Virus record (IMG/VR): IMGVR_UViG_3300044609_000595
Coordinates: 32,001 to 96,000 of that record
Length of the DNA: 64,000 nucleotides
Strand: one strand, 5' to 3'
Origin: a virus
Under the pieces are notes generated by a model. That model saw only the letters and a program-made list of their open reading frames with translations. It was not told the DNA's origin and did no database searches. Below, piece by piece: positions 4,297 to 51,794 of this stretch. Positions within the stretch are counted from its first letter, which is position 1, and each line of letters begins with the position of its first letter. The translations under genes and the position numbers were made by a program.

Positions 4297-5376
4297 ATGA
4301 CTGCTACTCTCGCTCAACAGCGTGGAAGCAACACTTGGGAACAATTCTGTGAGTGGGTGACTTCTACCAACAATCGTCTTTACGTTGGTTGGTTTGGAAC
4401 TCTAATGATTCCAACACTTCTCGCTGCTACTATTTGTTTCATTGTTGCTTTTATTGCTGCACCTCCTGTCGATATCGACGGCATCCGTGAACCAGTTGCT
4501 GGTTCTCTAATGTATGGAAACAATATCATCTCTGGTGCTGTTGTTCCTTCTAGCAACGCTATCGGACTTCACTTCTACCCCATCTGGGAAGCTGCTTCTC
4601 TTGATGAGTGGCTATATAATGGTGGACCATTTCAACTGGTCGTCTTCCACTTTCTGATTGGTATCTATGCCTACATGGGTCGTGAATGGGAACTATCTTA
4701 CCGACTGGGTATGCGTCCTTGGATTTGTGTTGCCTACTCTGCACCCGTTGCTGCTGCTTCTGCAGTGTTCCTGGTCTATCCCTTTGGTCAAGGATCCTTC
4801 AGTGACGCAATGCCTCTTGGGATTTCGGGAACTTTCAACTACATGCTTGTTTTCCAGGCAGAACACAACATTCTTATGCATCCTTTCCACATGTTGGGAG
4901 TTGCTGGTGTCTTCGGTGGTTCTCTTTTCTCTGCTATGCACGGATCTCTTGTCACCTCTAGTCTTGTACGTGAGACGACAGAAACTGAATCACAAAACTA
5001 CGGTTACAAGTTCGGACAAGAAGAAGAAACCTACAACATTGTAGCTGCTCATGGTTATTTCGGTCGTCTTATCTTCCAATATGCTTCCTTCAATAACTCA
5101 CGTTCACTGCACTTCTTCCTTGCTGCTTGGCCTGTAGTTGGCATCTGGTTCACTGCTCTCGGTGTTAGCACCATGGCATTCAACCTGAACGGTTTCAACT
5201 TCAACCAGTCCATTGTTGATAGTCAGAACCGTGTGATTCCTACTTGGGCAGACATTCTGAACCGTGGTGGACTCGGGATGGAGGTGATGCACGAAAGGAA
5301 CGCACACAACTTCCCTCTCGATCTTGCTGCTGCTGATATGACTCCTGTAGCACTCACAGCACCTGCCATCGGTTGA
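4297..5376 (+). CDS. psbA: Photosystem II D1 protein
   Basis: Unambiguous D1 sequence (NRLYVGWFG...HNFPLDLA), uninterrupted, YMGREWE (Glu130) form. Confidence 0.99.
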
Positions 5377-5401
5377 TAAAAATTAAATAACTGATATAAC
5401 T

Positions 5402-5428
5402 AAGAGGGTATAACAACCCTCTTTTTTT
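5402..5428 (+). terminator. Rho-independent terminator after psbA
   Basis: AAGAGGGT-ATAACA-ACCCTCTT followed by a T run. Confidence 0.85.
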
Positions 5429-5548
5429 ATGTCTCATAATACTCAAAACGAACCTATGCCCGAGTGGGTAATCTGGGCAGGAATAGGACTTATGGTATTC
5501 ACTATACTTTGCTTTGTCTTACTGACTGTTGGAATGATTTATGAATGA
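5429..5548 (+). CDS. Small single-pass membrane protein (39 aa), not in the ORF track
   Basis: MSHNTQNEPMPEWVIWAGIGLMVFTILCFVLLTVGMIYE*, with one hydrophobic helix. Confidence 0.55.
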   Translation: MSHNTQNEPMPEWVIWAGIGLMVFTILCFVLLTVGMIYE

Positions 5549-5637
5549 GTAAACCACTAGCTTTGTCTTCAATTCATAACAAATTTTATAATTACAACAA
5601 AAATAGGTTATAATTATACATGAGTTCTCACCTTTAT

Positions 5638-6294
5638 ATGAAGATCTTTTTAGATACAGCAGATGTTTCAATGATTAGTCCAGCATACGAGACTGGATTA
5701 TTAGATGGAGTCACCACAAATCCTACTTTAATTCTTAGAAGTGGTAGGCAACTCTTAGAAGTTATTGATGAAATTTCAAATATATTTCCAGATTTACAAA
5801 GCATTTCTGCAGAGGTTGTTGCAGATACTGCCGAAGAAATGCTTTCACAAGCACAACAATATTATTCAATCGCACCCGCAGTTACAATTAAAGTTCCTTG
5901 TACCGTAGAAGGACTTAAGACTTGTAAGTTTCTCACTGACAAAGGAATTCAAGTTAATGTAACTCTTGTGTTCTCAGTATCTCAGGCAATCCTTGCATCT
6001 AAGGCAGGAGCAACATTCATCTCACCATTCGTTGGTCGTTGGATGGACAATTCTGTAGATGGAATTGAACTTATCAAGAACATTCGTAAGGCATTTGATT
6101 ACTCTGGAACATCTACACAAATTCTTGCAGCATCTCTTCGTGATATAAGACAGGTAGAACAATCTGCCCTCTGTGGTGCTGATGTAGTCACAATTCCTCC
6201 AGTTGTCTTCTGGGCAATGTATAAGAACATTATGACTGATAAGGGTCTGGAACTCTTTCAGAAAGATTGGAATTCAGTTTTAGATAACAAATAA
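5638..6294 (+). CDS. talC: Transaldolase (TalC/Fsa family)
   Basis: MKIFLDTAD, GVTTNPTLI, TIKVP (Schiff-base Lys), NVTLVFS, ISPFVGR, ILAASLR; start probably 5638 rather than 5620. Confidence 0.95.
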   Translation: MKIFLDTADVSMISPAYETGLLDGVTTNPTLILRSGRQLLEVIDEISNIFPDLQSISAEVVADTAEEMLSQAQQYYSIAPAVTIKVPCTVEGLKTCKFLTDKGIQVNVTLVFSVSQAILASKAGATFISPFVGRWMDNSVDGIELIKNIRKAFDYSGTSTQILAASLRDIRQVEQSALCGADVVTIPPVVFWAMYKNIMTDKGLELFQKDWNSVLDNK

Positions 6295-6500
6295 TGAAAT
6301 CTCAAGATCAGTGTTGGCATTTTGTGATGTCATCATTCTCCAGATTGTATGGTGTTAAGAGAGTTATGAGTGAACAAAAGTTTCATGAAATTGCTCTACA
6401 ATGGTGTGATGATCACAATTATGTTTGTGACATTCACTTAGATAGTTTGGCAAAAGTGGATACCTATTTTAGAAAAATTTACGAGGATTGGGAAAAATGA
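6294..6500 (+). CDS. Hypothetical protein
   Basis: 68-aa ORF coupled between talC and gnd. Confidence 0.65.
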   Translation: MKSQDQCWHFVMSSFSRLYGVKRVMSEQKFHEIALQWCDDHNYVCDIHLDSLAKVDTYFRKIYEDWEK

Positions 6501-7531
6501 AAGTTGGATTGATTGGACTAGGACGAATGGGCGAAGGAATGTCTCGTCGTATGATGAAGGCAGGAATAGAAGTCTGGGGTTATCGTAGGAATTATGAGAA
6601 GGCAAGTGAAGCATATGAGAAAGGATATGTCGATGGAGTTGCAACTACTATCGAAAATCTTGTGAAAATAGTTAAACAAAAAATAAATGGTGGTGATCAA
6701 CCAGGAATTTTTCAGATGGTTGTACCTGCTGAAACTGTAGAGGAGACGATTAATGAACTACTACGATATTGTAGTGAAGGAGATATTATTATTGATCATG
6801 GCAATAGCAATTTTAAGGACAGTCGGAAGAGAGCAGAACGTCTGGCAAAACTGGGTATCCAATATATTGATTGTGGCACTAGCGGTGGTGTTTATGGTTT
6901 GGATCGTGGATACTGTCTTATGGTTGGAGGTGGAGATACTGCAGTCGCCACTTGTTCGAGCATTTTTAATGCCCTCTCCCCAGGAATTGACGCTGCCCCC
7001 AGGACTCAATTTGACTCAGACATAACTTCTGCCGAATATGGATGGTTGCATTGTGGTGGTCCAGGTGCAGGACACTTTGTGAAGATGGTTCACAATGGCA
7101 TTGAATATGGCATGATGCAAGCATACGCAGAAGGATTTAACATCATCAAGAACGCTAACGCAGGGGCTCAATATGTCAGAGAAGGTGATGCTGAAGTTGC
7201 TCCAATGGCAGACCCAGAATCCTATTGCTATGATATTGACGTTGCTGAGGTTGCTGAGTTATGGCGTCGTGGTAGCGTGGTTGGGTCTTGGTTACTCGAT
7301 CTTACTGCTGATGTGTTACGCAGGGATGGTCAGCTTAAACAGTTCTCTGGAGGCGTATCCGATAGCGGTGAGGGTCGTTGGACTGTTTCTGCCGCTGTGG
7401 ATCTGGGGGTTCCCGCTCCTGTCATTACTACTGCCTTATTTGAAAGATTTAATTCACGCAATCTCGGATCGTTCGGAGCAAAAATCCTGAACGGAATGCG
7501 TTACATGTTTGGGGGACACCACGTAAGATAA
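6497..7531 (+). CDS. gnd: 6-phosphogluconate dehydrogenase (decarboxylating)
   Basis: GLIGLGRMG Rossmann motif, IIDHGNS, DCGTSGG, GHFVKMVHNGIEYG, DSGEGRW. Confidence 0.96.
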   Translation: MKVGLIGLGRMGEGMSRRMMKAGIEVWGYRRNYEKASEAYEKGYVDGVATTIENLVKIVKQKINGGDQPGIFQMVVPAETVEETINELLRYCSEGDIIIDHGNSNFKDSRKRAERLAKLGIQYIDCGTSGGVYGLDRGYCLMVGGGDTAVATCSSIFNALSPGIDAAPRTQFDSDITSAEYGWLHCGGPGAGHFVKMVHNGIEYGMMQAYAEGFNIIKNANAGAQYVREGDAEVAPMADPESYCYDIDVAEVAELWRRGSVVGSWLLDLTADVLRRDGQLKQFSGGVSDSGEGRWTVSAAVDLGVPAPVITTALFERFNSRNLGSFGAKILNGMRYMFGGHHVR

Positions 7532-8465: not shown

Positions 8466-8496
8466 AAAAATAGGGGGCTTTATGCCCCCTTTATTA
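8464..8496. terminator. Bidirectional terminator between convergent genes
   Basis: A run, AGGGGGC-TTTAT-GCCCCCT, then TTATTATTT. Confidence 0.85.
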
Positions 8497-8916
8497 TTTG
8501 GGTTCCTCTGCAGGAACATACTTATGTTGTATTTTATATCCCATTTCACTTGGCGTCCACCATCCAGATGCTAGAGTAGATATTGAAGTTGCTAAAATTG
8601 CTGATGCTATACCAACACCAACAATCATCCATTTAATTCTGGAAACATCTTCAATTTTTTTCTCTACCAATTCCATTTTTTTATTGACAGAATCTCTCAC
8701 TTCATCAATCATTTTAATAATCAATTCATTAGCTTGTGCGGCATGGTCTAATCTATTTTCATGTCGTTCAAGAATGATAGAAACTGTGTGATTACTTTCG
8801 GTAATCCTATCCACAGCTTTCTCCAACTTGTACAACATTTCTTTAGTTAGATTTTCATAAAATTGAAATTTAGATTCAAGAACTGCAATTTGTCTATTGG
8901 TTATACCAAACCCCAT
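8494..8916 (-). CDS. Coiled-coil protein with C-terminal transmembrane helix
   Basis: Heptad-like N-terminus, WMIVGVGIASAILATSISTLA hydrophobic segment, GGAGA RBS. Confidence 0.8.
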   Translation of the reverse strand: MGFGITNRQIAVLESKFQFYENLTKEMLYKLEKAVDRITESNHTVSIILERHENRLDHAAQANELIIKMIDEVRDSVNKKMELVEKKIEDVSRIKWMIVGVGIASAILATSISTLASGWWTPSEMGYKIQHKYVPAEEPK

Positions 8917-8933: not shown

Positions 8934-9221
8934 TTAATTGGAAATAATAACTTGGGATGATACATTTAACATATTTTGTTCAATAATTTTTGGCTCAGAT
9001 GAATTATCTGGTGCGGGAGACATTGATTGATAAATGTCAGAATCCTGAATTACATCACTCATATCTCCGTAGTTAATAATGCTTTGATCAACTTCTGCAA
9101 GTTGACTATCAACTATATTTTGTTGGTAATTATAATAGGGATTATAATATCTTCTATAATAATAGGGATCTAGATTGTAATATCTCCTATAGTAGGGATA
9201 TGGTTGGTATCTGTAATACAT
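8934..9221 (-). CDS. Tyrosine-rich protein
   Basis: MYYRYQPYPYYRRYYNLDPYYYRRYYNPYYNY N-terminus, acidic/Gln C-terminus, AGGAGA RBS. Confidence 0.8.
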   Translation of the reverse strand: MYYRYQPYPYYRRYYNLDPYYYRRYYNPYYNYQQNIVDSQLAEVDQSIINYGDMSDVIQDSDIYQSMSPAPDNSSEPKIIEQNMLNVSSQVIISN

Positions 9222-9235
9222 TCTGAATCTCCTAC

Positions 9236-9370
9236 TTAGTAACGATAGTAAGGATAATACGAGTCATAAGGGCAATATCTATCATAATAAGGGTAACACC
9301 CATAGCCGTAAGGGCTGTAGTAGTCATAATATCTCCTGTGGTAATAGGGGTAGTATCGTGGATAGTACAT
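9236..9370 (-). CDS. 44-aa extremely Tyr-rich peptide, not in the ORF track
   Basis: MYYPRYYPYYHRRYYDYYSPYGYGCYPYYDRYCPYDSYYPYYRY* (22 of 44 Tyr), GGAGA RBS 5 nt before the ATG. Confidence 0.8.
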   Translation of the reverse strand: MYYPRYYPYYHRRYYDYYSPYGYGCYPYYDRYCPYDSYYPYYRY

Positions 9371-10115
9371 TTGGTTCTCCTGTTTGGTTTGCTATATCAA
9401 AAGTCCAAATGTCGTATCCTTCCTGTCTAATATAATCGAAAGGAATCCAACAGTATCCGTTGTTTCCCCAAGTAGTTCCAAAACTATTCTTTGCTAAGAA
9501 TAATCTTTTTTCTAAATCATAACCAACCATGCACATAGCATGACCACCAAGACTTTTTTCTTTCCTTCCTGGAAAGTTTACAGTAGAAATACGCTCATTC
9601 AGATCCATAAAACTATCATAAATTTCCATTCCGAATACAACTGGTTTGTTATTATTCAGCACTTGAGTAATATAATAAATGCTAATAAGTTTTTGATACT
9701 TGAGTATTTTTCTTTTTTTAGCATTCGCATAACATTCGTCAGTTGGACGATCATCAAATTTTTCTAAATCATATGGCCATAATGATTCCTCACACACCCC
9801 AAATTTTGCTAACGATTTCAGACCATCTCGTAAAAAGATACCGTTATCTATTTGAATATCTCCATATTCAGCACGGGTGTTGTAATAAATAAACAACCTA
9901 CTGAGGTGGGTGAAGTATTCTGGATACAAACGATTAACACATAATTCATATGCATTTGTAATAGCGTTAGCAGAACAACTGCCTAATGAATCTTGCGATT
10001 CAACATCAGAATCCCACTCACGGAGGTCTACAGATTCTCTGAGAACTTTAGTGCTATCGTTTCTATAAATGTAATCTCTATTATCTTGACGAGATGGTTT
10101 GATATTAAAGTTCAT
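9324..10115 (-). CDS. Papain-like cysteine peptidase (family C1)
   Basis: VDLREW, QDSLGSCSANA (oxyanion Gln and catalytic Cys), SRLFIYYN, GGHAMCMVGY (His), KNSFG (Asn), WGNNGY. Confidence 0.92.
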   Translation of the reverse strand: MNFNIKPSRQDNRDYIYRNDSTKVLRESVDLREWDSDVESQDSLGSCSANAITNAYELCVNRLYPEYFTHLSRLFIYYNTRAEYGDIQIDNGIFLRDGLKSLAKFGVCEESLWPYDLEKFDDRPTDECYANAKKRKILKYQKLISIYYITQVLNNNKPVVFGMEIYDSFMDLNERISTVNFPGRKEKSLGGHAMCMVGYDLEKRLFLAKNSFGTTWGNNGYCWIPFDYIRQEGYDIWTFDIANQTGEPNVLSTILPLLPQEIL

Positions 10116-10124
10116 GATTCTAAA

Positions 10125-10736
10125 TTAGATAATTCTCCATTGACCGCCACGAAATACGACGGATACTGATTGATTAGGTACAGAAATAATGTAAGTGTTT
10201 GCGTTGTCAATCTTTTCAGTTCCAGATGGTTTGATAGTAATCTTTCCAGATCCCTGACCATACTCATCTTTGATTGTATAGACACGACCAGTAACGCCAA
10301 TTGGTAGTGTGATCGTGACTGCTGCTCCACTATAGACACCGATGTATTCATCATCGGCAGTAGCTGTATAAGAACCAGTAACTCCAATGGTAGCAATTAA
10401 ATCTGCACCAGAAGATGATACAGTAATGTTACCAGTAGAACCAGAAAGACTAATACCACTGCCAGCAGTTAAAGAAAGAACACCAGTGTTGGAAATGGTG
10501 AATGATGTATCATTACCTGTAGTAACAACATCAGTCAACTGAATACCATCACCAGAAGAAGGTGTTACTGAGGTGACAGCAACTTCTCCGTTGACGGTAA
10601 CTTGACTGAAAGATACAGAAGCATCTGGAGATACATCTTGTCCTAATGAAATAAATCCATCAAAAACATTAATGAAATCTCCAATTCCAACCACTCCATA
10701 ATCTGTTTTTGATGTAGGTTGTGCTAAGTATGCCAT
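10125..10736 (-). CDS. Fibre-like structural protein with C-terminal phage-fibre-type beta domain
   Basis: GVLSLTAGSGISLS repeat and YTATADDEYIGV...TITLP...GRVYTIKDE...W domain; GGAG RBS. Confidence 0.75.
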   Translation of the reverse strand: MAYLAQPTSKTDYGVVGIGDFINVFDGFISLGQDVSPDASVSFSQVTVNGEVAVTSVTPSSGDGIQLTDVVTTGNDTSFTISNTGVLSLTAGSGISLSGSTGNITVSSSGADLIATIGVTGSYTATADDEYIGVYSGAAVTITLPIGVTGRVYTIKDEYGQGSGKITIKPSGTEKIDNANTYIISVPNQSVSVVFRGGQWRII

Positions 10737-10747
10737 TGTTTACTCCG

Positions 10748-11353
10748 TTAGATGATGTACCAATCTCCACCACGACAAAATAAATTTACCGATTGATAAG
10801 GTACTGTCATTACGTATTTGTCTGTGCCATCGATATAACTACCATCAGAAGTAGTTACAGTTACTTTACGATTTCCTAGTGGCGGACCCATCTCTGCCTT
10901 TACAATGATCTCACAACAGTCGGTACATTCTGAAGGTAACGTAATAGTAACAGGTCCGTCGCTATTGACACCGATGTAGTAATCATCACAAGTAGCAGTA
11001 TAATCAGATGAAACCAAGATGCTTTTGCATTTGCATGAGCACTCTCCTGGTGGTCCCTGCGGTCCTGGTGGACCTTGCTCCCCTGGGGGTCCTGGTATCC
11101 CCTCTCCTGGTGGCCCTGGTGGTCCTGGTGGACCTTGCTCGCCTGGTGGCCCTGGGGGTCCTGGGGGGCATTCATCGGGACAATCATCACCATCAATATT
11201 GATGTTGATATTATCATTACCACCATTGTTAAGTAATTCTGTTATTTCAGAACGAATTGCCTGAATATTACTGAGGAGATTGTTATTACCGCCTCTTTCA
11301 TAATCAGACAACATATTATAAAGATCAATAAGTTTTCTTTCTGCTGAGTCCAT
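10748..11353 (-). CDS. Collagen-like protein (Cys-flanked GPP repeats) with the same C-terminal domain as 10125..10736
   Basis: About 13 G-X-Y triplets (GPP/GEQ) flanked by CPDEC and CSCKC; [13 protein letters not shown]...TITLP...GGDWYII; AAGGAGA RBS. Confidence 0.85.
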
Positions 11354-11367
11354 AGTTATTCTCCTTT

Positions 11368-11395
11368 AAAAAAAGGGGGGAGATAACTCCCCCTT
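11368..11395 (-). terminator. Intra-operon terminator after the first gene of the cassette
   Basis: Minus strand AAGGGGGAG-TTAT-CTCCCCCC-TTTTTTT, immediately followed by AAAGGAGA RBS of the next gene. Confidence 0.85.
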
Positions 11396-11412: not shown

Positions 11413-12141
11413 TCAGCGAACGTTGTTGCTGGTTGAAGATTGACCAACACCAGCCATGGTTCCAAAGTTAACCATTCCCTGACGGGTTTCTTGTAATTGG
11501 CTTTGGAAAGCATTCAATTGGGAAGCAACTGAAGCAAATTGTGCATTGTTAGCACTACCTACAGCATCCCAGTAACCGTGGCGAAAGTGATTAACATCGG
11601 TATTGCGCTCAATCAGAAGACGATTAAGCTCGTCATTCTTTAGTGATTGAATAAGAGCACGGGTGGCATCACCTTCGTTGGCGATTTCTCTTGCTAGGTC
11701 ATACTTGCTTTCAGCAACTTCCTTGCTGAGTTGTGATTGACCTAAAGCAATTGCGGTGCCAAGTCTTGCTGACTCAAGAGCAGTAGCAGTAGCAGCCTTC
11801 TCAGTAGAGAGAAGAATCTCTGTGCTGAGTTTTTGAGAAGCGAGGTCAGTCTGTGCTCTGAGAGCAGCAAGGTCACGGGAGTTATCAAAATCTCTTGCTT
11901 GCCCAGCAATAAAAAAGTCAGCAGCTCTTTGCTGAATCTTGTCAGCAGCTTCGTCTACCTTGGTTGATACATTAGCACCAGTAACCAAAACTTCACGATT
12001 AATTGCATCGTTGCCAACAGCAACAGCATACTTGGTCTCACCGAAACCGATTGCTTGTTCTCTACGAATATCGGAATGGTCTACAGTATATTCTCTACGT
12101 AAATCTGACCATGGATCAGAATACATTACTTGATCTGCCAT
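11413..12141 (-). CDS. Alpha-helical/coiled-coil protein of unknown function (242 aa), probable major product of the cassette
   Basis: ATG 12141 preceded by TAAGGAGA (preferred over the TTG at 12291); A/Q/S-rich, no Cys, one Pro. Confidence 0.85.
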   Translation of the reverse strand: MADQVMYSDPWSDLRREYTVDHSDIRREQAIGFGETKYAVAVGNDAINREVLVTGANVSTKVDEAADKIQQRAADFFIAGQARDFDNSRDLAALRAQTDLASQKLSTEILLSTEKAATATALESARLGTAIALGQSQLSKEVAESKYDLAREIANEGDATRALIQSLKNDELNRLLIERNTDVNHFRHGYWDAVGSANNAQFASVASQLNAFQSQLQETRQGMVNFGTMAGVGQSSTSNNVR

Positions 12142-12379
12142 TTGTTTTCTCCTTAAGGAAAAGAATGTGTTTGAATAGAGGAGAAAACGATTCAATCCGT
12201 CCATGACATAATGCCAGACGAATCTATCCAACAGACGACTGTAGGTGAATCGTCTGGGATTACTTCTATTTAAAATTGAATCGTAATTCAATTAGAGGTG
12301 AAGGATTAATGAAAGAGCCATTGCTGGAATCTTTTAGTAATACATCTGGTCTCTAACCGAAGGATCTCTCCCCCACGTT

Positions 12380-12387
12380 TATTTATA
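12380..12387 (-). promoter_or_regulatory. T4-type late promoter TATAAATA driving the minus-strand cassette
   Basis: Plus-strand TATTTATA reads TATAAATA on minus, about 240 nt upstream of ATG 12141. Confidence 0.75.
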
Positions 12388-19161: not shown

Positions 19162-20043
19162 ATGTCATTTGCAGATCTTAAGCGCAAGTCTCAGAGCAGC
19201 TTTGAGTTTCTCCAGAAGGAACTTGAAAAGTCCAGCACCCAATCAGGTGCCGACGATAGGCTCTGGAAGCCCGAACTTGACGCTTCTGGTAACGGTTATG
19301 CTGTAATCCGTTTCCTGCCCGCTCCCGAAGGAGAGAGCGTACCCTGGGCAAAGATTTATAACCACGCATTTAAAGGTCCTGGTGGCTGGCTGATTGATAA
19401 TTGTCCCACCACTAATGGTGACAAGTGCCCAGTCTGTGCTGCCAATACCAAGCTTTGGAATAGTGGTATTGAATCTGATAAAGAAGTTGCTCGTCAACGT
19501 AAGCGTAAGCTTTCTTATTACAGCAACATCTATGTTGTCAACGATCCCAAGAATCCTGACAACAATGGAAAGGTAATGCTTTTCAAGTATGGCAAAAAGA
19601 TTCACGATAAGATTCTTGCTGCTATGCAACCTGAGTTCCAAGATGAAACTCCTATCAACGTGTTTGATCTCTGGGAAGGTGCTAACTTTAAGATCAAGAT
19701 CCGTACCATTGGTGGTTATTGGAACTATGATGCTTCTGAGTTTGCTTCTCCCGCAGCTCTTAGTTCTGACGATGATGAGCTGGAACTGATTTGGAAGCAA
19801 GAGCATTCTCTGGAAGCATTTACTTCTACTGATGAGTTTAAATCTTACGAGGAACTGGAAACTCGTATGTCTTCTGTACTTGGCACTGCTCCTGCAACCC
19901 GTCAGGCTCAGTATGATGAAGATGAAGAACCGACTCCTGTAGCTACAGCAACTGTGGCTCGTGATGTTGATCTTCCTTCTTTCAAGTCTGAAGATGATGA
20001 TGATGCTCTCAGTTACTTTGCCCGACTGGCAGAGGAAGACTGA
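19162..20043 (+). CDS. gp32: Single-stranded DNA-binding protein gp32
   Basis: MSFADLK, DDRLWKP, GNGYAVIRFLP, CPTT...CPVC, acidic tail DDALSYFARLAEED. Confidence 0.95.
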   Translation: MSFADLKRKSQSSFEFLQKELEKSSTQSGADDRLWKPELDASGNGYAVIRFLPAPEGESVPWAKIYNHAFKGPGGWLIDNCPTTNGDKCPVCAANTKLWNSGIESDKEVARQRKRKLSYYSNIYVVNDPKNPDNNGKVMLFKYGKKIHDKILAAMQPEFQDETPINVFDLWEGANFKIKIRTIGGYWNYDASEFASPAALSSDDDELELIWKQEHSLEAFTSTDEFKSYEELETRMSSVLGTAPATRQAQYDEDEEPTPVATATVARDVDLPSFKSEDDDDALSYFARLAEED

Positions 20044-20050
20044 TAAAACT

Positions 20051-20077
20051 AAAGGGGGTCGTAAGACCCCCTTTTTT
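20051..20077. terminator. Bidirectional terminator
   Basis: AAAGGGGGTC-GTAA-GACCCCCTTTTTT between convergent gp32 and gp53. Confidence 0.9.
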
Positions 20078-20726
20078 ATACTCCAGTTTTTTTCAAGTCA
20101 TTTGATATGTAATCAGATGACTTACTATACAGATTAGTTTTTTTGAAATCAGCAATGAATGGTTCTATGTACTGTGGTTTCAGTAAATAAATTTCTCTCT
20201 TCTTTTCATTTTCATTTGATTCATATTCAAATACAGTAACTGGATATGATATTTCACTACCAAGAACTTCTGCAACACCATTACCATTCCAGTATTTAAA
20301 TGTTGATTCATGGAATGTTTCATCAACAATCAGACCACTCTTTAATACAATAGTTCCTTGACTATTCTTTACTTCTGTTGTTTCATAATGATGAATCTCT
20401 CCATATGGATTTTCGTAATTTGATTCGATGTGTTTTCTTAAATCATATTCTGACAGAGGCATATCAAATAAAGGATTAATCATATTATTTGTTAATACAA
20501 TTACCCAGTCCATGAAAGGATCATTGTACATTTTTTCAGCAATGCTATCTAATCTTTCTCCATTTTTTACAGCATACTTTTTAAAGTATACAGAGTAAGA
20601 GAATACATCTGGATTAATTTGGTATCTTCTAAAGAAATTTTTTGCTCGTACAAAATCAGATTCCGAAAAAGGATAACGGATTGGTTTCGTATCGTATTCA
20701 ATATCTGGTATGTTTCTGAAGTACAT
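20076..20726 (-). CDS. gp53: Baseplate wedge protein gp53
   Basis: YFRNIPDIEY, GERLDSIAEKMY...DWVIVLTNN, IHHYET, YESNENEKKREI. Confidence 0.9.
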   Translation of the reverse strand: MYFRNIPDIEYDTKPIRYPFSESDFVRAKNFFRRYQINPDVFSYSVYFKKYAVKNGERLDSIAEKMYNDPFMDWVIVLTNNMINPLFDMPLSEYDLRKHIESNYENPYGEIHHYETTEVKNSQGTIVLKSGLIVDETFHESTFKYWNGNGVAEVLGSEISYPVTVFEYESNENEKKREIYLLKPQYIEPFIADFKKTNLYSKSSDYISNDLKKTGV

Positions 20727-39952: not shown

Positions 39953-42900
39953 ATGGCTCTTACAAGACTTGATAATCTTTACTCAAGTAAAACTGGCAGA
40001 TATTTATATGTTTCACCAGATGATTTTAATGCTACTGATGAATTAGACAATCGAGGAAATTCTCCTCTACGTCCATTTAAAACAATCCAGAGAGCCTTTA
40101 TCGAAGTAGCTCGTTATTCATACCTCCCAGGTAGAAATAACGATAGATTTGACCAGTTCAGCATCATGTTGATGCCTGGTAATCACTATATCGACAACCG
40201 CCCAGGTGTAGTTGGTGTTACTAACACAGAACCAAGATATCTTGACGGTGCTAATTTAATCGAAGCAAACCGCCAAGAAATTATTGACAGAGCATTTGCT
40301 GAAATTGCTGTTGAATATGACGAATCTCTTTGGGGAACTGATTGGGTAGTTCCTGGGGATCCCATCAACAGCGATTTAAACAGAGGATTCGATTCATATA
40401 GATTAATCCAAAAAAATCGTTTAGACATTATTGATGAAGCCTTCAACACAATGTTGGCTTTTAATCCAGGATTTGAAGTTCCTAATGGTGATGCAAAATG
40501 TAAGAGAGATATTGGATATTTTGTTGATGCCGTATCTTTAGACATCCTTTTGGGTGGCAGTAACAAGTATACTCGCAAGTTTATTCAAAATTATTTTAAT
40601 TCCACTGGCACTGCTTGGCTTTCCAACACGTTACAAGGTGAGCAAACGCAATCAATTCAAGCATTTAATGCTGCCAGAGATTTGATGAATGAAGCTGTAA
40701 CCAATCAGCTAGATTACAAAGATTTAACTCTTACTGCAGATCCCCTAGTTGGTTCTAATGTAAATATAAATTCTTGTGCAAACATCAGATCTGCTATTAC
40801 TTCTCTCACTACATTAGTTACTGATAGAATTACTGCAAATTCTCTAAATGGTCTTCCTGCAGAAACCCCAGGCATCTTAATCGGTCCAGGTCAATCAATT
40901 TGCCAACGTGATATTGGCTATATTGTTGATGCTGTTGTTGCTGACCTTAAAACTGGTGGAAATAGCAATTCAGTTCAAGCTGCTAGATCATATTTTGATA
41001 GAAATGGTGATCCAATTGCCAATGGTTTGATTGGAGAAGAATCTCAATCAATTATTGCATTCGATGCAGCTAAAGTTATGATGAAAAAGGCTGTAACCAA
41101 CCAGCTGTATTCTAAAGATTTAACTTTGCTAGAAGGTCCTTCTATTGCAAACGCTTCCACAGAGATTCAACCAATTCTTCCTTCTGGCAATGAATTAAGC
41201 TGTGTTGATGTTCAAAATAGCATCGAAACTCTAATTGCTATTATCACTAGTGTAATTGCTGATGGTAATTTAACCAGTCTAGCTGATATTCAAATTACTG
41301 GTGATATTCCTGTATTTAATTACAATCAAGCTTTAGAAGAGTGGAATGACAACAGCATTCTAGATCTTTCTAACCCAGATAACGTTCTCTACAAATTTAA
41401 CGCTGCCACTGGCGGTGCTATCGTGCCCAGAGGCTGCTCTCTAATCGGCTACGACCTGCGTAGAACTATTGTACGACCTCTTTATGTACCTGATCCTGCA
41501 GACGGCACACAGGCCCGTACATCGATCTTTAACCTAACTGGTGGTTGCTACATTTGGCAGTTTACAATTAAGGATGGTGATCTTTCTGCTAATTCTCCTT
41601 TGTTTGATGAAACAAATGGTGTAGGTAAAGTATATTTCCAAAAAGGAAATACAGTAAATCTTGCGATACCTGAGTATTCGCACCATAAGATTACTATCAT
41701 GACTTATGCTGATAGTGATGATTTAACAGATTATTACACTAAAATTGGCAGGGCGTTTGCTAAATTCCAGCCATCTATTGATAATGCTGGAGAATTTGAT
41801 GCTCTAGTACAAGAAAATAGAATTGTAGGACCTTTATCAGATACTAGAAGAATTGACAGCATTCAAGTGTTTGATTCTTCTCCAGCAGGAACCTTAACTC
41901 TTCGTGTAACCACTAAGATTGACCATGGTTACTTTGTAGACCAATATGTTGCTATTTTAAATACTGGATTAGATGAAGCTATCAACGGTACAGTAAAAGT
42001 TACTGCAATTGACAATAGCAATCCTAGAGTATTTGAATACGAAATTAATGCAACTACTGCTGCTCTTGGATTAGTTAGCGGTCAAATTTATACTGCTGCT
42101 AGCGGTCTTAGTACCAATGCAGTTTCTCAAGCAGAAATTGACTCAGTAGAATCTGCTTCTCCATATGTATTCAACTGCTCAATTCGCTCCACCTGGGGTA
42201 TTTGTGGCATGTGGGCGGATGGATCTAAAGCAACTGGATTCAAGTCGATGGTTGTTGCCCAGTATACTGGTGTTTCACTACAGAGAGATGACAGAGCATT
42301 TATTCGTTATGATAGATTTACCAATACTTGGAATCAAGCATCACTGACTGATGCGTTTGCTACTGTAGCTTATCACACCAAGGGCGATGCTTACTGGAAG
42401 GATGACTGGAGAAACTTCCACATTCGTGCTTCTGACGATTCCTTCATTCAGTGTGTTTCGGTCTTTGCTGTAGGATTCTTTGATCACTTCTTAATGGAAT
42501 CTGGTGGTGACATGTCCATCACCAACTCCAACTCCAACTTCGGTAATACTTCACTTCACGCTGTAGGATTTAAAGGATTCTCGTTCAATCAGGATAAAGG
42601 TGGTTATATCACTGATATTATCCCACCAAGAACTATTAATAGTTCACCAAGCAACGAAGAAAAAATACAGTATTATACGCTTGATATTCAAGCATCTAAT
42701 GCACAAAACAATCATACCAGACTTTATATTGGTTCAGATGATGCTACCGATCCAGCAGATCGCCCAGCAGCAACAGTAAGTGGTTACAGAATTGGTGCCA
42801 GAAGTAATGAAAAACTTTATGTAAAATTAGATGATGGAACATATAATGTTACCCTTGAACCAAATGGTTTTGTTTCTTATAAAGCATCGCTAGAAACTCT

Positions 42901-45900
42901 AAACCCAGCTGGTATTCAAATTGATAACGTAGCTCAAGACGCTGCTAATAGAATTGAAGATAACAAAACATTAATTCAAAACGAAGCTTACAATTATATC
43001 ATTGCTAAGTATCCATATCTACTAACCAGACAAAGCATCACAATTGCTAAATGTGAAAGAGACATCGGCTATTTTGTTGATGCTGTAGTACAAGATCTTA
43101 GACTTGGTGGTAATGTAAACACCATTCAAGCTGCCGAAGGTTATTACGTTGGTGGTTCTTTAGCCTACATTAATAGTGAATTAGACGAAACTATCGAAGC
43201 TCTTGATTATGTCAAGAACATGTGTATCGCAGCAATGCGTAACTTTGATGTTCTTATTAGAAATTGTGAGACAGAAGCTGGTTCTGCGATTGTAAATGTT
43301 GGTGATACAACAGGTCTTCTGGTTGGTATGTCAGTTGCTGAATACAATCCATCAGCATTTGTCAATAATAAACTGACTAGTGGGATTTCCCCAATCACTT
43401 CTAATATTCCAACAAATACTTACATTAAGAGAATTCTTGATGATCAAAGAATTGAATTAGGAGAATCTTCTTCCAAATTAACCGCTGGCAATACAATTGA
43501 TGCTCAGCAATCATCATCAACTGCATACCTCTATTTTGATTATCAATTCGGTGCATGGTCTAGCCTACAACCAACCAAAGATGATAGCTTAATTCAAGAT
43601 ACCAATTATCCAGAATGTGCTGATATTGCAACTACGATTTCACAATATTTTAGTGACATATTTGTTGTAATAAATCAAGGATTAACTCCTCTTGGTGGCA
43701 GAGAAATTGATGCACATAACTTAATTTTAGCAAACAAAGAATTGATTGCTGAAGTTGCTGTTGACAGAATGTTAACAAATTATCCTGGTTTTGTTATTCC
43801 AAACGGAAATCAAAACTGTGTGGATGATATTATTGATGTTATGGAAGCAATTGCTTTTAACGTCAAATATGGTGGTAATAATAAAGTATATGAAGCTGGC
43901 GAAATTTATATCAGTGGACAGCATGTTGAAGGAGAGGAAGATCAAGCAGTTTATGCATTCTTGCAGGCTAAAGACATTGCCATTCAAGTAATGAGAAATG
44001 AACCAGTAACTATTACTGGTTCAACTAGAACTCAATTTATTGATTCTACTATTGTAGTAGATCCACAATCACCAACTTGTGCAAATATTGCTTCTGCAAT
44101 TACGAACTTAACTTCTATTATTACACAATCTATTGGCACATCAACAGTTTCTGGTAGCTTAGTTGGAATTACTAAATCAATTCCAACTATCACATCAGTA
44201 AATAAAATTGAACCAATTATTGATTTTAATGGTCTTTCTAAGAGAGCAACATTATTCACAATTAACACTGGGGAAGCAACTTCCAACCCACACCAATTTG
44301 AAACTGGAACTCCAGTTAAACTTATTCCTAAGGCAAAAGAAGGAACTAATCCAGATAAGAGAGTTATTCGTCTACCAAAAGGATTTAGCACCAACACCAA
44401 GTATTATGTAATTGCTCCTGGTAGATTTACTCAGCCAGAAGATTACTCTGGCACCACATATTTTGATGGCTCGGATCAGACCAAATTGATGCTGGCTGCT
44501 ACAAAAGAGAATGCTGCTGCTGGTATCTTTATTTACTCACCAGAAACAGATTCTGTAGATCCTGATGTAGAAATTGAAGTTCAAAGATACATTCTTGACA
44601 ATACATATGATCTACACAAATACAGATGTAATGTTGCTGGTGCTGGAGAAATTGAAACTGACGTTGCACATATCTTTGATCTTCCTAGCAATTCAGTAAC
44701 TCCTCAGCTAGTATTCTTCCGTGTTGCAAATGATATTCTTGGTTCCGATCTTCCAGAAATCGCTGGTGCAGGAACTATCAATACACAAACATATTATTAT
44801 GCTAGATTTATCTCACCAAAGAAATTTAGTATTCACACAACATTTGCTGATGCAATTGCTGGAGTAAATGCGGTTTCGTTTGTTCCTGGTAGTGGGCAGA
44901 ACTTCTATGTATTTGCTAACAAGCGTACCAGCCCACTAAGATTTGAAGCTGCTCCTAGAGATGAAGATGGACTATTACTGAATACCAGTGGTCTTTGGTA
45001 CTTACAAGTTAAAGATGAAACATCAAGCAATCCAAATACAGAAAGCATTCTGTATCGTTTCAAGGATATTGCTGCTTACGGTCCTGGTTCTGGCAAAATA
45101 AGAACACTTGATACTTGGTTTACTAGATTACAAGATACCAGAGGTAAAGAAGATCGTGTTTATAGATTACGTTATGTAATTCCTAAGTATCTTGAAACTG
45201 TTCGTGATCCTCTCAACGGTTTTGTTATCAAAGTTCGTACAGACGATAAGAGACGTTTAGTTCCACAAAAATTTGTACTTAAGCCAATTGGCGGTGCTCC
45301 ATCTGTAGCTAGATTTGACAACCCAGAACAGATTGGCGAAAGAATTGGCTATACCAAAACTGAACTTCTCGAAGATTATGGTATTGCTAATCCTACTTAC
45401 GATCCATACTTAGCACCTAAAGTAATTGGTAGCGAAAGAACTCAGAGTAAGATTGCCTTTACAATTCAGTCTGCTAGAAAAATTGAAGATGAAAGTACAG
45501 AATATCTAGAAATCACCGCATTTGATCATGCTATCACGAATGAAGGACTGAAAAATGAAATTTTCAGTGTTGTTGAAATTAATTTCCCTCAGGGTGGAAC
45601 ATTCTCGGTTAATAATGTTGGCGCTGGATTATCAAATCTAGTAACCTGGAATGGCTTCTCTAGTGGAAGTGGTTATATCCAAGGATATTTCGAAGAAAAT
45701 AATAATTATTATCTAGTAATCAAAAATATCACTGGTCAGATTAAATATAGCAGCATTGTTTCTACTAGATTTACTCAGGGTGATGTATTTGCTGATCTAA
45801 TGGCTAAACCCAATAGCATGGGTGATCCGAATGGCAAGGATAAGTCTGATCGCAGAGATTATCTGTACAGAATTGAAGGAGCCAATGTTTATACTTTAGT

Positions 45901-48900
45901 TCCAGGAGATATTATTACTGATGATGCTAATAATCAGTATAGAATTGAAAATGTTCGTGACGCTGGAAATCTTGAAGATAGTTTCTACATCTTCGACATC
46001 GACACAATTCAAGAGAGAATTGCTGGTCAACAAGATGGTATTTACTATCTAACTTGCCTTCGTGGTAACATTTCTCCATTCCCAACTGGAGCTGGTGTTG
46101 GTACAAACTTCAGAAACTTTAAGTTCTCGCAGCCAATTTCACAACTATATCCACAGAATTATAAGAATGATCCTACGTGGTTCAAGCAAGTTAATTCTGT
46201 ATACAATGATCCCCCTGCATCTATTGCTGCAGCAGACAACTATATTCATGGTTTAGTTACTATCAACGATGCTAAAAATAGCGAAACTAAAGAATTGGTT
46301 CAGGATTTAATTCTGCAGCCAGCATTAACTAATTTCACTTTTGTTAAGGCAGAATCTTTAAGTTCCGCAACTTTAAATCCAGTTGGTGGTTCTAATATCA
46401 TCGAAGCTCAGGAAGGTAATGCTACTTCTGGTTCGGAAGATAGATACATTCCTATTGCTGGTGATTCTGATTTCCCAACCGAAGGAAAACTTTATGTAGA
46501 ACTACGTAGACCTTCTATTGCACGTTCGGGCAACCATACATTTGAATACCTAGGTTTCGGTCCTGGTAACTACTCAACTGGCTTCCCACTTCGCCAGGAA
46601 GTTGTTCTTGCCGATGTTCAAGACTTCTATGCTCAGTCTAAGAGAGAAGACGGTGGTATCGTATTCTATACTGGTCTAAACTCCAACGGCGATCTTTACA
46701 TTGGCAACAGAAAAGTCAACGCTATTACTGGCGAAGAAACTTTCCTTGAAAGAGCAGTTCTAGAAGAATCTGCTGATGACGGTGGAGATGATTTGGGTGG
46801 TCTAGTTACAACCTTCGACACTCCTGTAACATTTAATGATAGAATTACTGTTGAAGGTAATGCTAATTTTAACAATCCTGTAGAGATTAGTGTTGCTGCA
46901 AACGAAGGAACTCCTCTTAGAATCTTCAGTGTAGTTAATGCTGATCTTGGCGATGATATTACATTAGGAAGAGCACAATTCCCTCAATCTAATGATGGTG
47001 ACATTACTCTAGGTAAGAATAGAATTAATGCTGCAGTATATGGAATTACTCCAAGACAAGTTCTTGGTTTAGATGGTCAAGCATATTCTATTAGAACTCA
47101 CTTTGTAAATGGTCTTGGACCATCGAATACAACTCCAGATCAAAATGCAACATTCAGTTCTCTGCAGGCAGTATCCTATAGTTCTACTCAAAATCCAAAG
47201 CCAGGTGATATTTTACTAAAAGGCAGTGAAGTAGGACGTTCAGGTTCACTTGGTTGGATATATGCCAACTATTATGCTGAAATTGCTGATGCCAGCATTC
47301 AAACAATTGTTAGTGATGGCATTCGCATGACAATTGAATGGGCTCCTGGCATAACAAATGCTGATGTTAACGTCATTGCAGGTGCTCAGCTAAGAATTAC
47401 AAACTTCGGCACGAATCCAAATCTTAACGGCATTTGGACTGTTCTTTCTAATGGATTTAGTTCCAGTGGTACTTCATGCCAAATTCAAATTATTATAACT
47501 CCAGCAGTTGGTGTTCTTTATACTTGGTCTACCGTTCCTGGTGCCAAGATGGAAGTTGCCCGCTCCAATTGGAAGGAAACTGGACTACTTGGTGCAGAAG
47601 CACTCAGAACTGAGACAGAAACCTGGGGCGATTATAAGTTAGGTATCAACACTCTTTCTAGAGCTTCTGATCTTGCTTACTTGAATGGATTTGTTCAAAC
47701 TCAAACACAACCAAGAGCTAATCTTGATGTTGTTGGTGATGCATTTATTAGCGGTACAAATACTGCAATTACTGTAACAAATACAGGAAATCAAGTTAAG
47801 ACTACAACTAAACTAGATAATGCTTTCTTAGTTGGTGGAAATAGTGCTTCTCCAAACCAAGCTGCAACACTAAGAGTTGCAACTATTGATATCCCATCTG
47901 GTAGTAGAGCAACAACTACTTATAGAGACGGTGGAAGATTTGGTATTAATACAACAATTAATACTAATGCATCAACTGATCTAGATAGAAACTTAGTTGT
48001 TGTTGGTGATGGTAGAATTACAGGCAATCTGTTAATTCAAGATGATATTAGTGTAAACGGTGGAGATATTAACACCACTAACAATGTATTCAATTTTGTT
48101 AACAATAATGCTACTATATTGAATATTGCTGGTAGCGGTGAAATCTTTAGCATTGGTAATAATGCTGCTGGCTCACAAAATGTTAATATTGGCAATAATG
48201 CTTCATCTCAAGTAATTGAAATTGGTGGCAATGCAACAATTACCAGACTTGGTATTCACAAAAATTCTCTTGACGCTAGCGTTGATATTGCCTCTGTAAA
48301 TGATAATGCTGCTAACAAGGCAAACATCGTTATTGGTGGTGCCTGGGGCAATCTGAACAGCCAAACAACAATTGGTACATTCCAAACCAAGGTTGCTGGT
48401 CAACTTGAAATTGGTACTAAGTATGCTCCAGGAACAAGCACTGCTAGATTGTTCACTCAAGCAAGAACAGTAAATCTATTTGATGGAGACCAAACAACTA
48501 CAGTTAACTTTGGTCCAAACGCTACCAAGATGTCAATTGGTTCTGTTGGTGGTAATACTTACATCAGAAACACTCTCAATGTTGATGCTAGCACAATTCT
48601 TAATTCTGAATTGAGACTATCTGGTGGTCTCAAGTCTGGCATCATTCAAATTCAAAGAGGAAGATTCTCTACAACTCCAGCTGCTCATGTTGTTGGTAGC
48701 CTAGAGAATCCAAATATTGATTTCTATAGATACGAAACATTAGGTAGAAAAATTGATACTGCTGGTGAAACTTTATGGGGTGGTCCAGCATTCTTGATTG
48801 CTGGTGGTCAAATTGCAGGAATTGATACTATTGGTGCCGTAAGTCCATCCAGATTACCAGGAACATATACTTTTATTGCTCCAACGGGTGGAACTGGCAC

Positions 48901-50546: not shown

Positions 50547-51794
50547 ATGGCTTTTTATCAGCAAACAAGAACAGCTAAAGCTGCCGCTATTGGCACAATC
50601 ATGCCCTGGACTGGGGGTGTATCAAACATCCCCAAAGGCTGGATTCTTTGTGATGGAACACCAATAACGGCAGCAAGTTATCCCCTTTTGGCTAGAGCAA
50701 TTGGGGATACTTATAATAATGGTCCATCATCATTTGCAGGTAGTTTTCCAAATTATGCTGGCAATATAGTTCTTCCTAATTTAACTAATAAAACCCTTAT
50801 TGATATTGAAACTTCTTATTTTGGGGCTGGAGGAACTGGAGAAACACAAGATTTAGATTCAAAAGCAGCCACTGCTGTCACACCTCTCATTGGAGCCAAT
50901 ACAGACAATGGAGTAAAAACAATTTATAATGATATTACTACTGATGTAGTTTTTACTCTTAATGACAGATCAGGATATTCTGGAAGAGCTTCTGGCAATA
51001 CAATTGGTGGTGGCGAAGGAGTAAGTAAAACTGTGTATATTAGCCCAAGAAAATTGGGAAGAGATCATATTAAACCACACAATCATCCTGGAAGATATGA
51101 ATCTCTTAGTTATACTAACCCACAACGACCTGGAGCAGGAGTAATTCCTTACTCTTCATTCACATATCAATTTTATTCTTACATTGATTATGATGATGGA
51201 GATATTTTATATGGTGGCTCTTCTGACACTGAAACTGGAGTTTCGATTACTTTTGAAGGTCCTAATGCTAGAGGTGATGTCAATGGGTTTGGAAATGGAA
51301 GCCCTGGAAGAGTTGTTGCTGGGATCAATGCAGAAAATCCTCCAATCAATTACACTCCATTTAATGTTAAATTAAGTCCACTGCAAACGTTCATGACCAA
51401 CCCTGCAGTTGATCAATCTACTCCTATACCATATGGTTTGCAAGGAGTTAATCTTAATTTACCTGCTGGATCCAGAAATTATTATCCAGATATTACAAAT
51501 TCTATAACACAAGCTAATACATTTGATACACTAACAACTCCAGCAGCGTATGATTTTAATCAAATTACTCAAAGTCCTGGAACATCTGATGTAATAGTGC
51601 CACACATTCATGATGAATTTGACGTAGAATTTGTCAGGGGAACTTTAAGACCAAATAGTACTATTACTGTTAATGTAGAGGCACCTAATGCTAATCTAAG
51701 TTTAGATAATCAATCTAATCAAGCTGCTTTGCAAATTAACTTTAATACGTCGCAGCCAGGATTAACATGTATATACATCATTAGAGCATACTAA
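50547..51794 (+). CDS. Tail-collar domain short tail fibre / baseplate protein
   Basis: IGTIMPW...PKGWILCDG...YPLLARAIGDTY; C-terminal YIIRAY. Confidence 0.82.
   Translation: MAFYQQTRTAKAAAIGTIMPWTGGVSNIPKGWILCDGTPITAASYPLLARAIGDTYNNGPSSFAGSFPNYAGNIVLPNLTNKTLIDIETSYFGAGGTGETQDLDSKAATAVTPLIGANTDNGVKTIYNDITTDVVFTLNDRSGYSGRASGNTIGGGEGVSKTVYISPRKLGRDHIKPHNHPGRYESLSYTNPQRPGAGVIPYSSFTYQFYSYIDYDDGDILYGGSSDTETGVSITFEGPNARGDVNGFGNGSPGRVVAGINAENPPINYTPFNVKLSPLQTFMTNPAVDQSTPIPYGLQGVNLNLPAGSRNYYPDITNSITQANTFDTLTTPAAYDFNQITQSPGTSDVIVPHIHDEFDVEFVRGTLRPNSTITVNVEAPNANLSLDNQSNQAALQINFNTSQPGLTCIYIIRAY

Follow-up and report, generated by a model that had tools for sequence, protein, structure and literature searches.

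The mussel foot proteins mfp-3 and mfp-5 are disordered and rich in Tyr, Arg and Gly, and their adhesion and coacervation proceed via aromatic and cationic residues; they are secreted with signal peptides, and their DOPA is made by tyrosinase. In the low-complexity domains of the FUS family, Tyr and Arg act as stickers that are separated by Gly, Ser and Gln spacers. The outer spore coat of Bacillus subtilis contains CotC and CotU, both of which are rich in Lys and Asp as well as in Tyr. These two small Tyr-rich proteins occur in high-mass forms, and the shell contains disulfide and dityrosine links (PMC7944565). The peptide described here, which we call YRP-A as a working name, is likewise small and very Tyr-rich and, like CotC and CotU, would be made late by a dedicated programme. 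Different from them, it has no family match, its versions contain only 0.2% Lys together with 15% Pro and 11% Arg, and it is found in a phage rather than in a spore. Judged by sequence, neither homology nor the composition of Tyr, Lys and Asp places YRP-A with CotC/CotU. With the mussel proteins it has in common a similar size range, a Tyr/Arg-rich composition and predicted disorder, but it possesses no hydrophobic stretch, no secretion signal and no homology to them. Like the FUS-type domains, YRP-A is dominated by Tyr accompanied by Arg and is predicted to be disordered, whereas its Tyr content is far more extreme, its spacers are Pro, and it is tiny and viral. These three appear to be the closest analogies, and they are compositional only.

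In terms of gene position, the nearest parallel would be the pairs of a cysteine protease and its inhibitor. In staphopain‒staphostatin and SpeB‒Spi, the inhibitor gene lies just downstream of the cysteine protease gene and is co-expressed with it, and the inhibitors are folded domains of about 100 residues. The small YRP-A gene also lies directly downstream of a papain-fold protease, but its product is a low-complexity peptide of 44 residues modelled with a pLDDT of 45, in place of a folded domain. A parallel at the level of architecture is offered by T4 fibritin, a coiled-coil rod whose C-terminus carries a small trimerising foldon. The helical rod encoded beside YRP-A similarly ends in a short, highly conserved C-terminal module, which is reused on a neighbouring protein, YRP-B; unlike the foldon, this module has no sequence similarity to fibritin, its oligomerisation is something that we infer, and its AF2 monomer shows no fold. 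Neither YRP-A nor YRP-B gave a match in Pfam, PHROGs, NCBIfam, PADLOC, the PDB sequences or the ESM Atlas, and literature searches returned no description. By these searches, YRP-A lies outside every described family.

The YRP-A gene

The window, namely the whole 64-kb stretch of phage DNA analysed here, encodes YRP-A on the minus strand at 9236–9370, with the start ATG at 9370 and the stop codon at 9236–9238, as read from the sequence and the ORF list. A first-pass annotation, made from the letters alone, had pointed at this place to a hidden ORF of 44 residues that is 50% Tyr, is preceded by GGAGA as its ribosome-binding site and shares 47 nt with the 3′ end of a peptidase gene, and it was right in each respect. 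YRP-A contains 22 Tyr among its 44 residues, besides 6 Pro, 5 Arg, 3 Asp, 2 Cys and 2 Gly; the GGAGA is located at 9376–9380 (minus strand), 5 nt before the ATG and inside the peptidase coding sequence; and the peptidase ORF (9324–10115) and YRP-A share 47 nt. Aliphatic residues are absent after Met1, and there is neither a hydrophobic N-terminus nor a hydrophobic stretch. Through all six frames of the window, at least nine Tyr within a stop-free stretch of 44 codons are reached in two places only (22 and 16), while the maximum in ten shuffles was 10. The Tyr density of YRP-A and YRP-B is far beyond chance. The AF2 monomer models are of low confidence, with a pLDDT of 45 and no confident fold for YRP-A and a poor pLDDT of 54 for YRP-B, and folds formed by oligomers cannot show up in such monomer models.

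With the peptidase as the bait, 30 IMG/VR loci were fetched. Both Tyr-rich genes, with order and frames unchanged, are found in all 24 of the IMG/VR loci whose peptidase reaches an identity of 58%, and the triad of peptidase, YRP-A and YRP-B is present in 11 of 11 further metagenome loci found through YRP-B, so that the position and frame of YRP-A are kept in 35 of 35 close-cassette contigs. Altogether, 56 related phage loci yielded 22 distinct versions of YRP-A, all in the same position and frame, where 22 is the number of distinct peptides and many of the 56 loci are overlapping cuts of the same contigs. The annotation had named a frame or a Tyr bias lost from related cassettes as the observation that would speak against the gene; both are kept in every related cassette found. 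The 22 versions are 42–53 residues long, have a Tyr content of 40–53% and usually contain two Cys. Over the family, Tyr accounts for 46% of the residues beside the fractions of Pro (15%), Arg (11%) and Lys (0.2%) given above; Ala, Ile, Leu, Val and Gln are absent, and PYY is the commonest tripeptide. The Cys pair is semi-conserved, and conservation is spread over the whole peptide.

The pattern of nucleotide changes is that of a translated frame. Pairwise differences at the first, second and third codon positions number 954, 773 and 2006, respectively, and dN/dS is about 0.03–0.14 for the closer pairs (Nei-Gojobori). TAT and TAC both occur in each of the 15 conserved Tyr columns, and the share of TAT among the Tyr codons of YRP-A, 64%, resembles that in the long genes of the window, 72%. 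The start region is kept as well: AGGAGA precedes the ATG by 5–6 nt in 20 of the 22 distinct loci, and AGGAAC takes its place in the other two. Over all loci, the overlap between the peptidase gene and YRP-A varies from 0 to 68 nt, and the peptidase tail within it from 0 to 22 residues, while the ribosome-binding site and the ATG of YRP-A are retained; in two loci, the peptidase ends before this ATG. These patterns firmly indicate a protein-coding gene under strong purifying selection, and YRP-A is very probably a real translated gene.

Could the Tyr-rich frame nevertheless belong to something else, either being open because of some feature of the DNA or RNA, or being read only after a +1 frameshift out of the peptidase? 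The other frames across YRP-A are open, but automatically so, because TAY-rich sequence cannot make stops there, and the Tyr frame stays open for at least 40 codons upstream in 10 of the 22 loci. On the other hand, third-position changes dominate in the Tyr frame with a dN/dS of about 0.1, and the ATG and the ribosome-binding site are conserved. In 11 of the 22 distinct loci, a stop in the Tyr frame lies 3–7 codons before the ATG, and therefore YRP-A would be initiated on its own. A product that is not independent is thus largely refuted and hardly credible by now. Two candidates were rejected along the way. The programmed +1 frameshift extension of the peptidase is ruled out by the upstream stops in 11 of 22 loci and by the two loci in which the peptidase ends ahead of the ATG, and an alternative-frame ORF of 31 residues (9232–9327) was set aside as a by-product of the TAY-rich sequence, since the changes that are silent in YRP-A would fall on its second codon positions.

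Since the ribosome-binding site of YRP-A is embedded in the peptidase gene, the two genes are suggested to be translated together. The last 15 peptidase codons (9324–9370, minus strand) lie outside the catalytic domain, and the N-terminus of YRP-A, MYYPRPY, is fixed in relatives. From the alignments, the C-terminal tail of the peptidase looks like a by-product of overprinting by YRP-A. YRP-A is missed by standard gene calling and consequently absent from protein databases; when 5.8 billion proteins were searched with a profile, one match, of 45 residues, came back, because gene callers almost never call the gene. Half-Tyr peptides under strong purifying selection are very rare, and we found none described in any virus.

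The cassette and its peptidase

YRP-A is part of a cassette on the minus strand, in which the genes follow in the order of coiled-coil protein, collagen-like protein, fibre paralogue, C1 peptidase, YRP-A, YRP-B and DUF7201 protein. Not every locus has the fibre paralogue or the DUF7201 gene, and the synteny of coil, collagen, (fibre), peptidase, YRP-A and YRP-B is kept in 24 IMG/VR loci. A motif scan located a late-promoter-like box of the T4 type, TATAAATA, upstream of the cassette (12380–12387, minus strand); as a single 8-mer it is not enriched in the window (5 found versus 7.4 expected), and its position is only suggestive. The first gene (11413–12291, minus strand) encodes the helical coiled-coil protein, an ORF of 292 residues from a TTG or of 242 residues from an alternative ATG at 12141. 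It is conserved in all related loci, and its product has no Pfam, PHROG or NCBIfam match. A hairpin with a T-run (11376–11393, minus strand) follows this gene and resembles an internal terminator. Then come the collagen-like gene (10748–11353, minus strand; Pfam Collagen, E 8.8e-7), whose GPP triplets are flanked by Cys clusters and followed by a fibre-type C-terminal domain, and the fibre paralogue (10125–10736, minus strand), which by comparison of ORFs and loci has the same C-terminal fibre domain. Both the collagen and the fibre genes match PHROG tail-fibre families, and the DNA matches of the fibre paralogue are Synechococcus phage genes annotated as hypothetical or tail needle. The variable last gene, found in only some related loci, encodes a DUF7201 coiled-coil protein (8494–8916, minus strand; Pfam E 1.6e-25) with a hydrophobic, membrane-helix-like stretch near its C-terminus, a match to PHROG 451 and a weak match to a holin family. 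The cassette is closed by a bidirectional hairpin terminator at 8472–8490. Its gene content and signals firmly mark the cassette as a fibre-like, late-type operon.

The gene directly upstream of YRP-A (9324–10115, minus strand) encodes a papain-family (C1) cysteine peptidase of 263 residues with no propeptide. It matches Peptidase_C1 (Pfam PF00112, E 1.4e-13) with 51.9 bits versus a cut-off of 20.7, and its nearest solved relative is PDB 3OIS_A (E 2.8e-38). Gln41, Cys47, His192, Asn210 and Trp216 are invariant in 11 diverse homologues, and the catalytic set of Gln, Cys, His and Asn is complete. There is no room for a prodomain, because the Pfam and PDB matches begin within the first 30 residues. 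Among 50,697 phage records, no cyanophage relative of the peptidase was found, and the only matches were distant ones (36% identity or less) in unrelated phages. More distant peptidase homologues exist without Tyr-rich genes. Proteins with a coiled coil and a transmembrane segment, similar to DUF7201, adjoin distant C1 peptidase homologues at two loci (L029:24-512, plus strand; L028:2108-2587, minus strand). In Alicyclobacillus phage MMB025, a C1-like domain forms the N-terminus of a 753-residue protein annotated as an endolysin, which is encoded after tail-fibre genes. By analogy, the peptidase may have a role in lysis.

YRP-A starts inside the peptidase gene or right at its end in 22 of 22 distinct loci, and such strict adjacency fits a role centred on the peptidase as well as it fits a structural one. 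YRP-A would then be a partner of the peptidase, serving as its substrate, as a decoy or inhibitor, or as a cofactor, with the ratio between the two fixed by translational coupling. The enzyme has its Gln/Cys/His/Asn set intact and no room for a prodomain; papain-family enzymes prefer bulky side chains, hydrophobic or aromatic, at P2 and tolerate Arg at P1, and both YRPs contain Tyr-Arg motifs. However, the peptidases of loci L024, L025, L027 and L028 occur without any Tyr-rich gene and those of L067 and L091 without YRP-A, YRP-A has no predicted fold, unlike the known protein inhibitors, and YRP-B and the fibre genes show equally tight linkage. We consider a peptidase partner unlikely, though worth keeping in mind.

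YRP-B, the shared module and a possible structural role

YRP-B, again a working name, is encoded by a gene of 95 codons in the ORF list (8934–9221, minus strand), which begins 14 bases past the YRP-A stop, is preceded by another GGAGA and opens with MYYRYQPYPYYRRYY. From sequence and alignment, three parts can be distinguished, all on the minus strand: a low-complexity arm of Tyr, Arg, Pro and Asn (residues 1–34, 9120–9221), a conserved Q/N-rich core (residues 35–66, 9024–9119), and a variable Pro/Glu-rich tail with the stop codon (8934–9023). The first-pass annotation had paired YRP-A with this second Tyr-rich gene, called the opening segment of the latter closely similar and suggested a duplication. 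The pairing stands, but the likeness turned out to be mostly compositional. Against composition-matched shuffles, z ranges from –0.3 to 3.7, p is about 0.05 for the pair in the window, and one of seven locus pairs is clearly significant; with order-level similarity barely above such shuffles, a duplication cannot be shown.

The core of about 35 residues follows the pattern SQ-x5-Q-x-I-x-N-x-G-x-M-x2-V-x-Q and defines a sizeable family, for which 230 or more clusters at 90% identity (E 0.01 or better) and 62 representatives at 50% identity were counted. Its members are either unnamed or listed as hypothetical, except for a few JGI names that are evidently spurious. The distant members are 58–100 residues long and repeat the same plan, that is, an N-terminal arm rich in aromatic residues, Arg and Pro, the core of about 35 residues and a short tail. 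Longer, fused forms of the core were not returned by the search, weak evidence as this is. In six loci (L001, L002, L005, L011, L012 and L016), the YRP-B frame is open for 18–32 codons further upstream, with a TTG and a hydrophobic, signal-like string. In the window and the other loci, this extension is missing or lacks a start codon, and it is therefore probably a side effect of the TAY-rich 3′ end of YRP-A.

The YRP-B core recurs as a module at the C-terminus of the coiled-coil protein, in its last 41 residues (11416–11538, minus strand), a link that the first-pass annotation had missed. A profile built from distant YRP-B-like proteins only, with the window sequences left out, was searched with hmmsearch against 537 ORFs of the window and matched residues 252–292 of the coiled-coil protein with an E of 3.6e-9 (bias 1.2), while YRP-B itself scored 2e-16. 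When the C-termini of the coiled-coil proteins were compared with the YRP-B-like family by hhalign, a probability of 96.9% with an E of 1.3e-10 over 35 columns was obtained. The coiled-coil version of the module hardly varies between loci, including those of phages with 54% G+C; YRP-A does not contain it. That the YRP-B core and the coiled-coil C-terminus share one module appears statistically solid. Since two otherwise unrelated proteins of one operon end in the same module, the simplest reading, which we infer here, is that it serves as a common docking or oligomerisation element.

We propose, with a probability of roughly 40%, that the two YRPs are the sticky, aromatic and disordered parts of an accessory fibre or coat assembly. 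The operon would build an accessory fibre or coat structure, in which YRP-B would be tethered or co-oligomerised via the Q/N-rich module of about 35 residues that it shares with the coiled-coil C-terminus, and would present its Tyr/Arg/Pro arm. YRP-A, as essentially a free copy of an arm of the YRP-B type, would associate through multivalent Tyr-Tyr, Tyr-Arg and Tyr-Pro contacts as a filler or glue, it might be locked in later by disulfide bonds or oxidative Tyr links, and the peptidase may trim or mature the assembly. Because the shared module is absent from YRP-A, its tie to the structure runs only through neighbourhood and composition. Should the YRPs turn out to act as a glue in the structure, as a coat that can be cross-linked or as partners of the protease, tailed-phage biology would gain a new kind of component, and a compact natural motif for Tyr-rich materials would be at hand as well.

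It is not hard to imagine a more far-reaching version, in which the operon coats or cements the phage particle or its fibres with Tyr-based protein, as the viral counterpart of a spore coat. Half-Tyr peptides would be packed together, fixed by disulfide, oxidative or light-driven Tyr-Tyr links, docked via the new module of about 35 residues and matured by a dedicated papain-type protease. We hold this version to be rather improbable. Dityrosine or DOPA cross-links, phase separation, adhesion and a screen against UV, as put forward by the first-pass annotation, are conjectures here. The cassette contains no oxidase genes, and tyrosinase (PF00264) gave no match in the phage record, which is 57% complete, nor in the control genomes.

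The composition of the YRPs also invites a quite different explanation, namely that they act inside the infected cell, by forming condensates or by binding nucleic acids or host proteins, for example during late assembly or host takeover. Tyr and Arg make up 57% of YRP-A, which has no predicted fold, and YRP-B, with its arm-plus-module plan, resembles condensate scaffold proteins. However, the YRP genes lie amid fibre-type genes that have late-operon signals, and the net charge is low (Asp is present, Lys nearly absent). An intracellular role is, in our opinion, quite doubtful, and the part in a fibre or coat assembly is the reading that we prefer.

Distribution and genome context

The window is part of a virus record of 110 kb that is about 57% complete. 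With psbA, T4 RNase H, gp32 and tail genes of the T4 type, it represents a T4-like cyanomyovirus. The cassette is shared by many large, uncultured phages of aquatic origin, and the operon with YRP-A was found only in uncultured T4-like, mostly cyanophage-like phages. Using tblastn against 50,697 phage records, no true homologue was obtained for YRP-B, for a distant YRP-B-like protein or for the coiled-coil protein, and thus none of the cultured phages in this collection possesses YRP-B or the coiled-coil protein. A degenerate DNA pattern of the YRP-B core gave only chance matches and no family member in 185,579 prokaryote genomes, while in IMG/VR it retrieved three further phages (L067, L091 and L095) together with L073. 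As far as these searches reach, the YRP-B family is phage-only.

In the three distant phages L067, L091 and L095, the YRP-B-like gene lies directly after a collagen-like gene, the gene order is different and YRP-A is absent. A peptidase is encoded further downstream in L067 and L091, with a fibre gene in between in L067. In L073, the YRP-B-like gene is followed by a gene for 74 residues rich in Gly, Tyr and Cys, and no C1 peptidase is present in 106 kb. Given these gene orders and the peptidases without Tyr-rich genes, YRP-B seems tied to the coil/collagen pair more widely than to the peptidase. YRP-A would be a clade-specific addition that always abuts the peptidase.

Outside the cassette, the record holds four matches to 2OG-Fe(II) oxygenases of the prolyl-hydroxylase type (G000:C1 30530-30790, 69603-69749, 92637-92894 and 94066-94326), two of which score better than the Pfam cut-off. 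The enzymes might modify the GPP collagen-like protein or the Pro-rich YRPs. These four genes elsewhere in the phage are also what a RiPP-like pathway could draw on, in which YRP-A would be a precursor with Tyr-Tyr or Cys-Tyr cross-links, modified or secreted, and the peptidase would be its processing enzyme; a small conserved peptide with two semi-conserved Cys beside a clan-CA peptidase is in line with this. Yet radical-SAM, P450, YcaO and other tailoring genes are absent from and next to the cassette at every locus, YRP-A shows no division into leader and core, the whole peptide being conserved, and there is no export gene. A RiPP-like precursor is accordingly very improbable, and the YRPs as parts of a fibre or coat assembly are still our preferred reading.

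Host-like metabolic genes stand beside the cassette in the inverse orientation (4297–7531, plus strand), where psbA, confirmed by Pfam, is followed by ORFs that by eye resemble transaldolase and 6-phosphogluconate dehydrogenase (gnd). In the tail-gene region of the window, a single ORF of 3530 residues spans 39953–50545 (plus strand), and a gene with a phage tail collar domain (50547–51794) follows it. The L073 segment (L073:3753-4173, minus strand, equal to about 19946–20366 of G001:C1) belongs to a jumbo-phage fragment of 53% G+C, in which the YRP-B-like gene encodes 74 residues. The adjoining 74-residue gene, rich in Gly, Tyr, Cys and Pro, may be a second kind of aromatic-rich partner, and the surroundings, as judged from ORF translations only, suggest a region rich in tRNA genes and bearing endonucleases.
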